Assembly (NCBI GenBank): GCA_050178385.1
Contig: JBFXGD010000095.1
Location: 1 to 13,296 of the forward strand
Length of the DNA stretch: 13,296 nucleotides
Direction of reading: 5' to 3'
Origin: Calditrichaceae bacterium
GTDB taxonomy: Bacteria; Calditrichota; Calditrichia; Calditrichales; JBFXGD01
The notes below the pieces were generated by a model that made no database searches, had not been told where the DNA came from, and saw only the letters and a program-made list of their open reading frames with translations. Below are positions 4,596 to 13,106 of this stretch, piece by piece (position 1 is the stretch's first letter; every line of letters starts with the position of its first letter). A program made the translations under genes and the position numbers.

Positions 4596-5321
4596 TCAAC
4601 CTTTTGCCAATTGTGCCCAATTTGCCGGATATGTTGAATAAAATACCTTTGTTCTCGTCGGCGTCCCGAAGATTATGCTGCTGCCCTTAGGTATGTAGAA
4701 CATGTCTCCGGCATGTCCTTCAAAGGTCTTGCCATCGATCGTTATTGATAGAATACCTTCCAGAACGATATCAACTTCATCGTAAGTAAGCGTCCACGGG
4801 AAAGATTCCTTTTTCCATTCCATAATACCCGCGGCTATGGGAGAACCATCTTCATGAGTTACCACATCAGCCAATCTGATATTTTTATCGGGTCCCGCCT
4901 CTTCGAATCGTTCAAGCTTAACAGACTGCCCCTTGATCAAAATAATGCCGGAAGAATCAACTTTTCGCTCGCTGCCTTGCCGAATTACAGGAGCCTTACT
5001 ATATTTTTCGTTCTTCAGCACGGCCATAACAATTTCTTTAATTTTTACCGGATCTCTTTGATTCGCAGGCAACTTCTTTATAACTTCGAGCGTCACCTGC
5101 CTTACAAGATTTTCATCAATATTCACCGGAGTAGAAAGACTTTTGGATTCCTTAACAGCCGGCATTGATGAATTCACTTTTTCTGAAATCTTTATTCCGA
5201 ACTTTTTTGCAAGGTCTTTCGCTTCAGGGGTTATAATCGAATTGTCTTTTGACGCGACGATTTCCTTAATCCCTTCGGTCTTTGCCTGTCTGATTTTTGA
5301 TGCGGTGATCAATTTTTTCAT
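4596..5321 (-). CDS. eutQ: EutQ, cupin-fold ethanolamine utilization protein (reported acetate kinase activity)
   Basis: N-terminus MKKLITA...SIITPEAKD and C-terminal cupin FPWTLTYDEVDIVLEG..GDMFYIPKGSSI.FGTP..YPANW. Start ATG 5321 preferred over GTG 5333 on homology. Confidence 0.94.
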   Translation of the reverse strand: MKKLITASKIRQAKTEGIKEIVASKDNSIITPEAKDLAKKFGIKISEKVNSSMPAVKESKSLSTPVNIDENLVRQVTLEVIKKLPANQRDPVKIKEIVMAVLKNEKYSKAPVIRQGSERKVDSSGIILIKGQSVKLERFEEAGPDKNIRLADVVTHEDGSPIAAGIMEWKKESFPWTLTYDEVDIVLEGILSITIDGKTFEGHAGDMFYIPKGSSIIFGTPTRTKVFYSTYPANWAQLAKG

Positions 5322-5334
5322 CTCTAAACCCACT

Positions 5335-5793
5335 CTAGTTTATATGATTTCTCTCTATGAGGTATTTTCTAAGTTTATCTATCGTTTTGCTCTCCAGCGC
5401 TGAAACTTCAAATATATTTTCTATGATACCATACTCTTTCAGCAATTCCCGGACTTCTTCCACCCGGGCGTCAGGCAGATCAATTTTTGAAATGACACCA
5501 ATGACCCGGTTATTATAAATTGTGAACAGGCCCGGAGGCATTTTATGCTCGACCACATTACTTTGATGCACATATAAAATGGTATCGATCGCGGTCATGG
5601 TTGAGATCAATGCCGTGTATAATCTGGGATTATCAAGATATTCTCCCGGCGTATCGATAGTACGTTCATCATGATAAACCATCGCCTGCGTTTTAATCAC
5701 TTCTTCATCCCGGTTTAGCAGAGCATTAAACAGGGTTGATTTGCCAACACCTGTTGTTCCTATCAGCATAAAATTATCTGGTTTCTTCTTCAT
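5335..5793 (-). CDS. eutP: EutP/PduV-family small P-loop GTPase-like protein
   Basis: Walker A GTTGVGKSTL, KTQAM, IDTPGEY, SKIDL, FEVSA motifs; start overlaps the eutS stop (TGATG). Confidence 0.94.
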   Translation of the reverse strand: MKKKPDNFMLIGTTGVGKSTLFNALLNRDEEVIKTQAMVYHDERTIDTPGEYLDNPRLYTALISTMTAIDTILYVHQSNVVEHKMPPGLFTIYNNRVIGVISKIDLPDARVEEVRELLKEYGIIENIFEVSALESKTIDKLRKYLIERNHIN

Positions 5794-6149
5794 CAGGTTT
5801 TTGTAACCTCACATGGTGTATATCCCAAAATACTGCTTAGGACCTGATTTACTGAAATCAACGATTCTTCAACCGCCCCGACTTCTCCGTAGAAGACCAG
5901 GGCGCCGGTAAACCGGTCCAGAAAACCTATGTCCACGCTGGCCGCTTTAAGAGCTATATCTCCGGCGATAATCGCTGTCTCACCTGGTGTGAGCGTCATT
6001 ATTCCGATCGCGTTCACATAAGGAACTCCAATTTTTTTGCAGAGATCTTCACCCGGATGAGCAATCATGTGAGCAAGAGTGACCTGCTTCCCCGGGACAT
6101 ATTCCTGAATGATACGTTCTTTCCCGGATAAATCGTTAATGTCTTTCAT
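5793..6149 (-). CDS. eutS: Circularly permuted BMC-H shell protein EutS/PduU
   Basis: [22 protein letters not shown]...[38 protein letters not shown] is the EutS signature. Confidence 0.96.
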
Positions 6150-6912
6150 CTTCCCTCACGCGTTTAATGATTTCTTTCGACAGCAATTCATAGTCCCTGC
6201 TTCCGCTCGCGCGTTTGTCAAAATAGGAAACAGGCATTTTTTGATTGTACGCTTCACTGAGTTTACTGTTGATCCCGATAACCGATTTAAAAACCTGCTC
6301 ACCGAAACGGCTCCTGAGTTGTTCCATTACCTGGACCGAAACTTTTGTTCTCTTGTCAAAATGTGTTCCAAACAGACCAAGTATCTTAATTTCAGGATTA
6401 ATTCTCCGTCTTACTTTTTCAAGCAAACTCAATGTTAGTTCCAACCCCGAAAGCGCTATATATTGAGCTTGCACCGGTATAAGGGCATAGTCTGAAACCG
6501 CGAGCGCGTTGAGTGACAAAGAACCCATATTGGGCGGACAATCAAAAATCACATATTCAAATTCAGCGGGGATATCCTCTTTTTTTATGAAGAATGATAT
6601 TTTTTCATCCTGCTGTAATTCATCATAAAAATCACTTAAAGACGGTTCGGAAGGCAGACACCATAAATTTTTAAATTCCGTTTTTTGAATATAATCTTTT
6701 ATGTTATCTTCCTTGTTTATCAGATAATCACAGATCGTATTAAATTCCATGTCTTGTTTAATAAGACCAAGGTGACTCGACGCGCTCGAAGAAGGATCAA
6801 TATCAGCCAGCAGGGTTTTTTTACCCATTTGACCAAACCAGGAGGCGATATTCACCGCGCTCGTGGTTTTACCCACCCCGCCTTTATTATTGATAATGAT
6901 GATCAGCTTCAT
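6136..6912 (-). CDS. ParA/Soj-family ATPase (orphan; candidate BMC-positioning McdA-like protein)
   Basis: Deviant Walker [11 protein letters not shown] with signature Lys, A' motif LADIDP, Walker [27 protein letters not shown] and NSKLSEA segments; Soj-like length (258 aa). Starts 1 nt after the eutK stop and overlaps the eutS start by 14 nt. Confidence 0.93.
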
Positions 6913-6913
6913 T

Positions 6914-7474
6914 TTAATTTTCCATCAGGTAGTATTTCTGATGAACCTTCTCAATCAATTTTGAATCAACTAATTTTTTGATAACCTTACGGACTTCCGT
7001 TAAAATTACTCCAAGCTTGTCTGATATCTCCTGCAGAGTAAGACCTGTTTGATCGGATCTAAGCAAAGCCAATATTTTTTGAGAATTGTCGGGTTTCTTT
7101 CCCGATACCGGCATCTTTTTGGCTTGCTTCTCTTTTATTGGATTCCGGGTCTTGTTACTATTGGTAATTTCCTGTTGCCTTTTCCCCCGAAAATTACCCG
7201 TCAATAGCTGCTTTACTAAAAATTCAGTATCATCCACAGGTCGGGCGATCACGTGGTGCGACACAACTTTACCAATACATTGCGCCGCGCTTTTACCGGC
7301 ATCAACTGCCGCCTGACATGCAGCCAAATCTCCCTCGACAATGACTGTAATCAACGCGCCACCGCTTTTTTTAACCTTGATTATATGTACCTTAGCGGCC
7401 TTAACCATGGCATCAGCGGCTTCTATCGCTGCTGTCAATCCCCTTGTCTCGATAAATCCATATGAGTTCAACAT
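6914..7474 (-). CDS. eutK: EutK: BMC-H shell domain fused to a C-terminal winged helix-turn-helix domain
   Basis: aa 1-90 BMC domain (GFIETRGLTAAIEAADAMVKAA..VEGDLAACQAAVDAG..IARPVDDTEFL); aa ~131-186 ILALLRSDQTGLTLQEISDKLG..EVRKVIKKL..KYYL resembles the EutK C-terminal HTH; follows eutL as in enterics. Confidence 0.9.
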   Translation of the reverse strand: MLNSYGFIETRGLTAAIEAADAMVKAAKVHIIKVKKSGGALITVIVEGDLAACQAAVDAGKSAAQCIGKVVSHHVIARPVDDTEFLVKQLLTGNFRGKRQQEITNSNKTRNPIKEKQAKKMPVSGKKPDNSQKILALLRSDQTGLTLQEISDKLGVILTEVRKVIKKLVDSKLIEKVHQKYYLMEN

Positions 7475-7476
7475 TC

Positions 7477-8136
7477 TTATCCAATCTGTATGGGATTCCG
7501 CACTACTGACAACACTGCATCACGAAAAGCGTCACATGCCGCCTGGCAGGCAGCCTGAGTACCCGTCATCAGCGCGCCGGTAAAATTTGTCTCTGACGGT
7601 GGAGCGAACCATTCTTTCACTTCCACGTTCGCGGCCTTTAAAGCCGCATCTATCGCGTATGTGCCTTCAAGGGGCGGCGCGATTAAATATGCCAAAGGGG
7701 AACCTTCATCTATACCGGCCACCTTTGACAGGTAAGTTCCCGTACGCGCAATCAGATGCGGGAAAAAAGCCAGTGAATTTGCTTCGTTTGCCGAATACCA
7801 TATCGCATCCGTTTTGATGTAATCGATCGCGGCATCCAGTCCGGCCCGCACTTCTCCGGGTGTCGGTCCCGCCAGCATAGCGATAATTTCACCGGAAAGC
7901 GGTCCGCTCGCGTGAGCTGCGCCGGCATAAAAAGATTTGGCATAAACGACTTCCACTTCCGCTTTTTTTGTCGCCTCATCTATGGCGACATAACAGGCGT
8001 CATCTATATCACAGGTCAGCAGCCCCAAAGATCTTTGATTCGGTTTTAATGATAATTTTTCCGCAAATCCTCTGTCAACTGATGCGATTAAACGAACTGC
8101 GAGCACATTCGCTCTGATTTCATCTAAAATAGCCAT
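7477..8136 (-). CDS. eutL: Tandem-domain trimeric shell protein (BMC-T) EutL
   Basis: DIDDACYVAIDEATKKAEVEVVYAKSFYAGAAH..GPLSGE, RTGTYLS, LAYLIAPPLE, PPSETNF.GA.MTG.QAAC.AAC.AF motifs; 219 aa. Confidence 0.96.
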   Translation of the reverse strand: MAILDEIRANVLAVRLIASVDRGFAEKLSLKPNQRSLGLLTCDIDDACYVAIDEATKKAEVEVVYAKSFYAGAAHASGPLSGEIIAMLAGPTPGEVRAGLDAAIDYIKTDAIWYSANEANSLAFFPHLIARTGTYLSKVAGIDEGSPLAYLIAPPLEGTYAIDAALKAANVEVKEWFAPPSETNFTGALMTGTQAACQAACDAFRDAVLSVVRNPIQIG

Positions 8137-12029: not shown

Positions 12030-13106
12030 TTAGAATTCGATCAGTAACTGAGTAATATAAGTCATATCCATTTCAGAATCCGCGCCGGGTGCAGGTTTAT
12101 AATTTTCTGCTTTCGCGTTAAACATCAGCATACAGCTGCCGACGATTTTATAATTAACACCACCAAGAAACATTGTGATTTCATCATCATCAACATCTGT
12201 ATCAGGATCATGAATACCCGCCTGAGCAAGCAGCATCATATTAGGGTTTAAATCATAATTTACATAGCCCATATATGAAAGACCGGATGGTGTATCGCCA
12301 GCGGCGTTCTTGATTGTTGAACGGCCCAGATCAACTTCAACACCGGCGTCAAACTGATCGGCAACAGCGTATTCAATACCACCACCGAAAGCATCGTTAT
12401 GTTCTTCATTATTGCCTGAATACATATAATCCATAATTCCCCAACCAAATACTGTGAAGCCCTGGACCGGATGCAGCCATACATCAAAACCGATATTTTT
12501 AGCTTTGTTGTCATCGCCGGCATAGTTATACGTATTTTTGTTTGAAAGAGCTAAACGAGTGTAGCCCAATTTGTTCGGAAGGTTATATGTGGCCATAAGA
12601 CCTGTCACTGCTGAACTGAAACCTTCAGGGAAAGCAACGGCGTTATCATAAGTGTAGCGATCAAGCCAGCTGTTTTCGATGGTGCCATGATAACTCTGTG
12701 GCCCTGGTTGTTCGTAATTACCAAAGATCATATCAACATTTTCGACACCAAGAAAGTTTGTGAATTCAAGATATGCATACTTAATTCTTGAGCGGGTTCC
12801 TTCGTTGATTAATTTACTGTAGGATGTTCCGTCAGGATAATAGCCGGTATCATATCTGTTTTTGTGGGTGAAATCCACCGTAAAACGGGCTTTAATATTA
12901 TCCGCTAATTTGTATTTCATGGTAATATATGCGCGATCAAATTTGAATTCATTGCCTGTTCCGTTCATCAATCCGTCATTAACCCAATAGCGGTATCGTA
13001 ATGTTGTTGAAAGACTAAAATCATCATTAATTTTACCTGCAAAAAGGTTGGTACTCATGAGTACAAACAGCAACATGAGACTCATGGTAGAAAATCTTCT
13101 TAACAT
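12030..13106 (-). CDS. Putative outer-membrane beta-barrel porin (OprO/OprP-like motifs)
   Basis: Sec signal peptide MLRRFSTMSLMLLFVLMSTNLFA/GK; many alternating amphipathic aromatic-rich strands (FKFDRAYITMKY, RIKYAYLEF, IGFDVWLH, GGGIEYA, MGYVNYD, LGGVNYK); C-terminal beta-signal YITQLLIEF ending in Phe; strong SD GAGGAG. Confidence 0.8.
   Translation of the reverse strand: MLRRFSTMSLMLLFVLMSTNLFAGKINDDFSLSTTLRYRYWVNDGLMNGTGNEFKFDRAYITMKYKLADNIKARFTVDFTHKNRYDTGYYPDGTSYSKLINEGTRSRIKYAYLEFTNFLGVENVDMIFGNYEQPGPQSYHGTIENSWLDRYTYDNAVAFPEGFSSAVTGLMATYNLPNKLGYTRLALSNKNTYNYAGDDNKAKNIGFDVWLHPVQGFTVFGWGIMDYMYSGNNEEHNDAFGGGIEYAVADQFDAGVEVDLGRSTIKNAAGDTPSGLSYMGYVNYDLNPNMMLLAQAGIHDPDTDVDDDEITMFLGGVNYKIVGSCMLMFNAKAENYKPAPGADSEMDMTYITQLLIEF

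Follow-up and report, generated by a model that had tools for sequence, protein, structure and literature searches.

Among the described systems closest to the locus analyzed here, McdAB combines an ATPase of the ParA family, whose gene lies in the operon of the organelle and whose ATPase and DNA-binding residues are intact, with the separate protein McdB, which has a basic N-terminus and a terminal Trp (PMC8359340, PMC13052382, PMC11321042; statements on published work refer throughout to the available parts of the cited papers). Spacing by such a ParA-type system is gradient-driven (PMC13052382), and McdA- and/or McdB-like genes are found at four catabolic BMC operons (PMC8359340). For the partners of these ATPases, the general model of the field is a disordered, positively charged peptide (PMC10241942). 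In M. xanthus, most of the ParA-ParB binding is carried by hydrophobic residues, and the ParB site on the ParA dimer's edge has a hydrophobic part (V116, L150, L152, L155, L187, L192) together with an arginine site (Y81, E82, D110, E117) (PMC12462528). Positioning of metabolosomes in Salmonella requires EutK and PduK (PMC12487888, PMC9132943, PMC12866334). Deletion of eutK or pduK places the organelles at the poles (PMC12487888; PMC9132943), and an outward display of the tail was proposed for PduK (PMC9132943). Positioning of the Pdu organelle persists after deletion of parA or minD, and the operon contains no parA (PMC12866334). That EutK acts like ParB, or together with ParB, was published as a speculation alongside the polar clustering upon eutK deletion (PMC12487888). 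ParA has been described as an ancillary Pfam family of BMC loci in general, together with a MIC locus of Caldithrix abyssi (PMC4207490); further related literature is available (PMC8262871, PMC11321042). In the available main text of PMC8217296 ParA and EutK are unmentioned, and its Supplementary Data 2 may show the locus. Among the matches listed from a literature collection without most subscription papers, no paper describes a shell-fused winged HTH (wHTH) as a ParA partner.

The window, i.e., the whole stretch of 13,296 nucleotides from a Calditrichaceae bacterium, carries an ethanolamine-utilisation operon on its minus strand. The operon comprises eutA, eutB, eutC, eutL, an EutK-like gene and parA, followed by eutS, eutP, eutQ and eutT, and it continues with pta, the genes of three EutM-type hexamers, then eutN and finally a gene for an aldehyde dehydrogenase that is cut by the contig end. 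The EutK-like gene (6914..7474, minus strand, 186 aa) lies between eutL (7477..8136, minus strand) and parA (6136..6912, minus strand), the end of which is overlapped by eutS (5793..6149, minus strand). The last base of its stop codon is 6914, and parA opens with an ATG at 6912, which leaves a gap of 1 nt; the earlier note on this DNA had described the gene as abutting the ParA start. A scan for promoters and terminators remained at chance level (7 vs. 5.2; 3 vs. 2.6). Two further observations were made in the window. Positions 1796-2754 hold a tandem of three near-identical EutM-type hexamer genes, the last of which has a short basic tail. Upstream of eutA (12030-13106), a secreted-looking protein of 358 aa is encoded that has no Pfam or NCBIfam match and whose homologs occupy the same place in three other loci (L031, L181, L182); it may form a channel in the outer membrane through which ethanolamine or cobalamin passes.

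The EutK-like protein is composed of a BMC-H domain (aa 4-79; 7238..7465, minus strand; Pfam E 2e-26), a linker (aa 96-127; 7094..7189, minus strand) and a wHTH (aa 130-183; 6926..7087, minus strand). Since the edge motif D21-A-M-x-K25 of the BMC-H domain is retained, with D21, M23 and K25 invariant, the protein is likely built into the shell. The composition of the linker was as claimed in the earlier note: 11 basic residues (8 K and 3 R) stand against 2 acidic ones, both E. Such a basic tract is uncommon in the source genome, but not unique, because equally basic tracts exist in 36 of the 2,009 ORFs that were called mechanically with a minimum length of 250 aa; counted as 32-aa segments, 145 of 882,625 in these ORFs are equally basic. 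AlphaFold2 predicts the linker to be disordered, with a pLDDT below 50 across aa 96-126 and of about 90 across aa 130-183. The C-terminal domain alone was predicted as a wHTH with a mean pLDDT of 94.9, and Foldseek returned generic wHTH matches for the isolated domain, none of them at E <= 0.001. At sequence level, Pfam gave sub-cutoff matches only, EutK_C among them at E 0.037, and a weak match to PDB 3i71 was obtained (E 0.17).

Like enterobacterial EutK (PF16365; PDB 3i71) and PduK, the protein is a BMC-H domain with a C-terminal extension, and it shares with EutK the wHTH and the position after eutL. The gene position is as in eut operons, but 35 of the 37 Calditrichales homologs have no eutL in the stretch read. 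With 110 bits the protein stays below the cut-off of the EutK equivalog model NF012010 (218 bits), and with 14.5 bits below that of EutK_C (27.5 bits). Furthermore, in a BMC tree from which a truncated copy (L062) was left out, its BMC domain is placed separately from proteobacterial EutK. We therefore use the label EutK-like. The source genome contains no EutK_C match, and the ESM Atlas yielded EutK leads only, all below 0.9.

The pairing of this shell protein with parA is conserved. In all 40 loci that we collected, parA follows directly after the shell gene, which supports the two-gene module proposed in the earlier note. These loci comprise 37 from 35 of 39 Calditrichales genomes, two from Ignavibacteria and one metagenome contig. 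In the Calditrichales, parA is next on the same strand in 37/37 loci with gaps of -4 to +47 nt (16 with a 4-nt overlap, 33 within 12 nt). Read-through or fusion of the two genes was considered and rejected on the basis of these gaps. A wHTH profile, built from 33 of those sequences that had themselves first been found by a single-protein search, recovered 37 places in 35/39 genomes of the order and one marginal match among 47 others of the phylum. For the ParA clade (E <= 2e-76, against 4.5e-50 for the next best match), a search of 61 genomes gave 37 places, which lie in those same 35 genomes. Outside the Calditrichota the range was sampled. A full-length homolog is present in 2 of 301 genomes of the class Ignavibacteria, both loci sharing the order eutL-K-parA-eutS-eutP with the window. 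A metagenome search gave one full-length homolog among the 80 loci listed, again with parA directly after it, and in a wider scan by ParA alignment 4 of the 80 loci listed belong to the ParA clade. The presence of a long tail is not enough to predict parA. Of 16 Ignavibacteria loci viewed, one lacks a tailed hexamer; the other 15 hexamers have a helical tail of another kind, and the stretches read around them contained no parA. These hexamers (L184-L198) have long acidic or neutral linkers and another small helical end module. Pfam gave no name for this module, which we take to be HeH/Rho_N-like.

The source genome and one congener each carry two paralogous shell-protein/ParA pairs. In the source genome these are the pair of the window (6136-7474) and a second one on contig C161 (G000:C161:6614-7959), where the ParA is 60% identical and the pair belongs to a shorter microcompartment locus. 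With two paralogous pairs in one genome, nature itself offers a way to ask if the positioning of one organelle type is independent of that of another. The shorter locus is found across the order (G000:C161:94-7959 and L032-L063) and consists of the EutK-like gene, parA, an EutQ-N-like gene, pta, hexamers and an aldehyde dehydrogenase (AldDH), often together with eutJ, pduS and pduT. Its genes are colinear with those in the full eut operon's second half, and a signature enzyme is lacking; the locus may represent an eut operon that was reduced and took on a new substrate. With its AldDH, pta and PduS, this locus type fits the description of the MIC locus of Caldithrix abyssi; in the available part of that paper, however, no wHTH-tailed hexamer is mentioned (PMC4207490). 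One of the four catabolic operons with McdA- and/or McdB-like genes could also be of the shell-wHTH/ParA type (PMC8359340).

The adjacent ParA is a Soj-type protein: its match to Soj (E 3e-50) is better by a wide margin than the one to the solved McdA (E 1e-10). In a quick tree of 91 sequences, the 40 shell-linked ParAs formed one microcompartment-specific clade (SH-aLRT 100). The deviant Walker A motif with its signature Lys and the catalytic Asp are present in 40/40 proteins (K10, K15, D39), as are R188 and K217, which align to Arg in the Soj of the genome. Presumably, these two positions correspond to the DNA-binding arginines of Soj. Judged from these alignments, the dedicated clade keeps its ATPase and DNA-binding residues intact. 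In this respect, and in the encoding of the ATPase within the organelle operon, it resembles McdA. Next to the chromosomal Soj of the genome, which retains the canonical pocket, lies a ParB whose LGRGL motif is canonical as well, and the fourth ParA of the genome sits among chemotaxis-type genes; both labels come from reading the sequences.

The partner pocket of the clade differs from the canonical one. We mapped the M. xanthus pocket onto the ParA of the window through an alignment to chain 8ray, which was taken to be M. xanthus ParA because residues match at a constant offset of 19. Equivalents of the hydrophobic site are D97, M129, S131, L134, K166 and I171, and those of the arginine site are C61, D62, S91 and E98. 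Compared with the M. xanthus pocket, Y81 is changed to C, V116 to D/E, L152 to N/S and L187 to K; the equivalent of E117, E98, is kept, and an Arg of the wHTH is predicted beside it (PMC12462528). From the Soj of the genome to the clade, position 97 changes from I to D/E/Q, 131 from L to N/S and 166 from L to K, and further changes occur at 95 (A to F) and 94 (G to D/E). Since the ParB pocket residues are changed compared to Soj, the pocket appears to be rebuilt for a different partner. The remodelled half is an acidic helix at aa 89-98 (E89, D/E94, F95, D/E97, E98; 6619..6648, minus strand), and the whole helix at aa 89-104 is strongly acidic throughout the clade. The other half, aa 165-171 with K166 and R169 (6400..6420, minus strand), is the predicted contact of the wHTH wing.

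The earlier note had proposed to model the ParA dimer with the linker and the HTH. Our input was a ParA dimer with ATP/Mg and two copies of aa 88-186 of the shell protein. The complex scored 0.76, compared to 0.11 for the best control, and passed a score mark that is reached by 116 of 157 solved complexes and by 2 of 215 mismatched pairs; since we supplied our own alignments and ligands, these benchmark counts apply only approximately. At least 67% of the contacts agreed between runs, and the pLDDT of the partner was at least 68. Each modelled wHTH contacts both ParA subunits. The confident interface is predicted to involve residues 147, 158, 162-163, 166, 169-170, 175-180 and 182 of the wHTH and residues 52, 61-66, 91-105, 131, 134 and 165-171 of ParA, the latter corresponding to the ParB site. 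Predicted pairs include R162-E98, K176-D94 and E175-K166, and V177 and Y182 are placed against ParA aa 166-171. On either side of each of these three charged pairs, at least 39 of the 40 loci have the same residue or a conservative substitution. Mean column conservation is 0.69 for the predicted interface, 0.34 for other surface positions of the wHTH and 0.30 for the linker. On the linker side the model names a single residue (aa 95, in one copy), where a disordered peptide may be under-called and residues not named count as uncertain. From the modelling that the note had asked for, the wHTH emerged as the predicted docking part, and the linker hardly entered the confident interface. We know of no solved ParA-wHTH complex of this kind. 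As a prediction, the complex supports binding between the wHTH and ParA.

On balance we favor the reading that the wHTH-tailed shell hexamer is a built-in adaptor of the adjacent ParA, with the wHTH as the predicted dock, and we regard it as fairly probable. With ATP bound, the ParA dimer would offer two symmetric pockets, each of them taking up one wHTH domain that bridges both subunits. By analogy with McdAB and ParAB, ParA-ATP dimers would cover the nucleoid, and the shell tails would face outward, bind ParA and set off hydrolysis and release. The organelle would then climb the ParA gradient, and the proposed process would resemble McdAB in that a gradient spaces a protein organelle. A flexible tether would be the role of the linker, its charge helping in nucleoid contact or in steering to the acidic ParA helix and replacing the charge that is missing from the wing. 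As in M. xanthus, the predicted dock is a bipartite pocket at the dimer edge; there the partner is an LGRGL-type helix, here it is predicted to be a wHTH (PMC12462528). In contrast to the separate McdB with its basic N-terminus and terminal Trp, the adaptor would be C-terminal, folded and situated within a shell hexamer. A comparison with Salmonella counts against a ParA adaptor, in that its tailed hexamers place organelles without a parA in the operon and Pdu positioning persists when parA or minD is deleted (PMC12866334).

An alternative is that the tailed hexamer alone tethers the organelle to the nucleoid through linker and wHTH, the co-inherited ParA acting on another partner or only indirectly. 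DNA tethering was suggested for enterobacterial EutK, a shown positioning factor that, like PduK, is needed in Salmonella without an operon-encoded ParA. The whole tail of the ParA-linked proteins is strongly basic (median net +11), the fold is that of a typical nucleic-acid-binding wHTH, and the same wHTH is found on gas-vesicle proteins without the ParA clade. However, a tether of this kind leaves unexplained the adjacency in 40/40 loci and the fact that a remnant of only three genes, K-parA-pta (L064), still has the pair. It also does not explain the complementary fixed charges and the passing complex model. We consider it unlikely.

The gas-vesicle proteins came from a profile search of 1.84 billion proteins, in which helical-repeat proteins with the same wHTH signature at their end were matched at E values of about 1e-6 to 1e-5. 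Among 12 loci read, ten gas-vesicle clusters encode wHTH-ending proteins and one locus a stand-alone wHTH of 73 aa (L213); the match in L215 was rejected as false. The ten loci (L201, L211, L212, L214, L216-L221; for example L219:3434-4192) belong to two other phyla and carry the gene between gvpA and gvpN, both of which were confirmed in L211 and L219. The cluster of L211 also contains an ArsA-type ATPase. These proteins matched no family model, and we call them GvpC-like on the basis of gene position and repeats. A strong profile-profile match to their wHTH is partly circular because the proteins were chosen by the same profile. The ParA clade is absent from 5/5 genomes checked that have a gas-vesicle wHTH. 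The wing signature K166/D170/E175 is thus not exclusive to ParA, since GvpC-like proteins carry it without the ParA clade. A separate, divergent BMC-wHTH group (P0039, P0061, P0063, P0073) lacks R162 and has K166, D170 and E175.

A reading that follows the earlier note gives the activating role to the linker itself. The linker would stimulate ParA in the way that ParB, McdB and MinE do with their basic N-terminal peptides, and DNA would be bound by the wHTH. We compared the 40 ParA-linked proteins with 24 proteobacterial EutKs, a set from which one frameshifted locus (L336/L337) was dropped. None of the 24 has a parA within about 1.5 kb, nor was one seen in the eight loci viewed more widely (12-29 kb), and the ParA clade was missing from 5/5 genomes with ParA-less EutK that were searched. 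E. coli EutK is 166 aa long and thus 20 aa shorter than the window protein, with a 17-aa linker of 2 K/R and 3 D/E (net -1), in agreement with the note, which gives it as about 20 aa shorter and less basic in the linker. The median linker of the ParA-linked set has 35 aa, 10 K/R and a net charge of +8 (n = 40), compared with 19 aa, 2 K/R and -1 in ParA-less EutK (n = 24). A net charge of at least +5 is reached in 36/40 ParA-linked and in 0/24 ParA-less copies. The correlation of linker length and charge with an adjacent parA that the note had proposed to look for is found, and equally basic linkers in loci without parA, which it had named as contrary evidence, do not occur among the 24. Both sets are separate lineages, however, and the comparison is therefore one phylogenetic contrast and not 64.

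This charge difference, the strongly acidic ParA helix at aa 89-104 and the general model of a disordered, positively charged partner peptide (PMC10241942) speak for the linker as activator. Against it, the linkers of the ParA-linked set vary from 15 to 75 aa and are not conserved in sequence. The ParB-type N-terminal amphipathic motif with a central Arg or Lys (hydrophobic-x-R/K-x-hydrophobic) occurs in 0/40 of them, and their median fraction of large hydrophobic residues is 0.09, while in M. xanthus binding is mostly through hydrophobic residues (PMC12462528). The two Ignavibacteria homologs have linkers of +4 and +6, and parA is kept where the linker is barely basic (L222; 4 K/R, 2 D/E) or has a net charge of -1 (L051). 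Together with the low conservation of the linker and its near absence from the predicted interface, this makes an activating linker peptide decidedly improbable, and this part of the proposal was not supported.

The wHTH itself differs between the two sets. The wing reads RKRSSRYR in the 24 EutKs, EKVxxxYF in the ParA-linked set and EKVHQKYY in the window protein, and its median net charge is +5 in EutK and only +1 in the ParA-linked proteins; a wing that is not basic speaks against the reading with the linker as activator and a DNA-binding wHTH. Invariant wHTH residues in the ParA-linked proteins are G144, K166, D170 and E175. In EutK, the positions of the latter three are mostly occupied by E, S and R. 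Position 176 is K or R in all 40, and R162 is present in 39, with Leu in L222. G144, R162, K176 and Y181 are common to both sets, position 162 being R in 21 and K in 3 of the 24 EutKs. The idea that a ParA partnership would account for the EutK HTH in general was not supported: enterobacterial EutK combines a short neutral linker with a different, basic wing and has no neighboring parA of the clade.

A very improbable alternative is that the EutQ-N-like protein of about 100 aa, which in the window is fused to EutQ as its N-terminal domain (eutQ, 4596..5333, minus strand), acts as an McdB-like adaptor: its gene lies directly after parA in most of the 31 loci with a separate copy, as mcdB does after mcdA, and its product has basic residues at the start and Tyr or Phe among the last four residues in 9/31, but it is missing from L064 and L222, which keep the pair, lies two genes from parA in full eut operons, ends in Trp in 0/31, shares its N-terminus with E. 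coli EutQ, which has no ParA, and links shell to cargo in Salmonella (PMC12487888). A separate McdB with a terminal Trp or another terminal aromatic residue was not found after parA, which in the window is followed by eutS, in agreement with the absence of McdB that the earlier note had presumed.

The built-in adaptor thus agrees best with the conserved module and the passing complex model, and the earlier note was probably right on the adaptor and wrong on its docking part, which would be the wHTH instead of the basic linker. More tentatively, and with doubt prevailing, a folded wHTH built into the shell may have become a ParA activator from an EutK-type DNA-binding wing, its charge moved to the linker, and the GvpC-like copies may point to a general ATPase-docking tag on organelle surfaces. 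The pair itself is real and conserved, and as far as the modelling goes it would represent a variant of ParA-based organelle positioning with a specific predicted interface. With a candidate pair and candidate residues named, the question of positioning becomes testable with two small soluble proteins. If the reading is true, the rule of disordered basic N-termini for partners of ParA/MinD would extend to a folded C-terminal domain, a two-gene positioning module would be available for engineered shells, and no separate adaptor protein would be needed to distribute an organelle along the chromosome.
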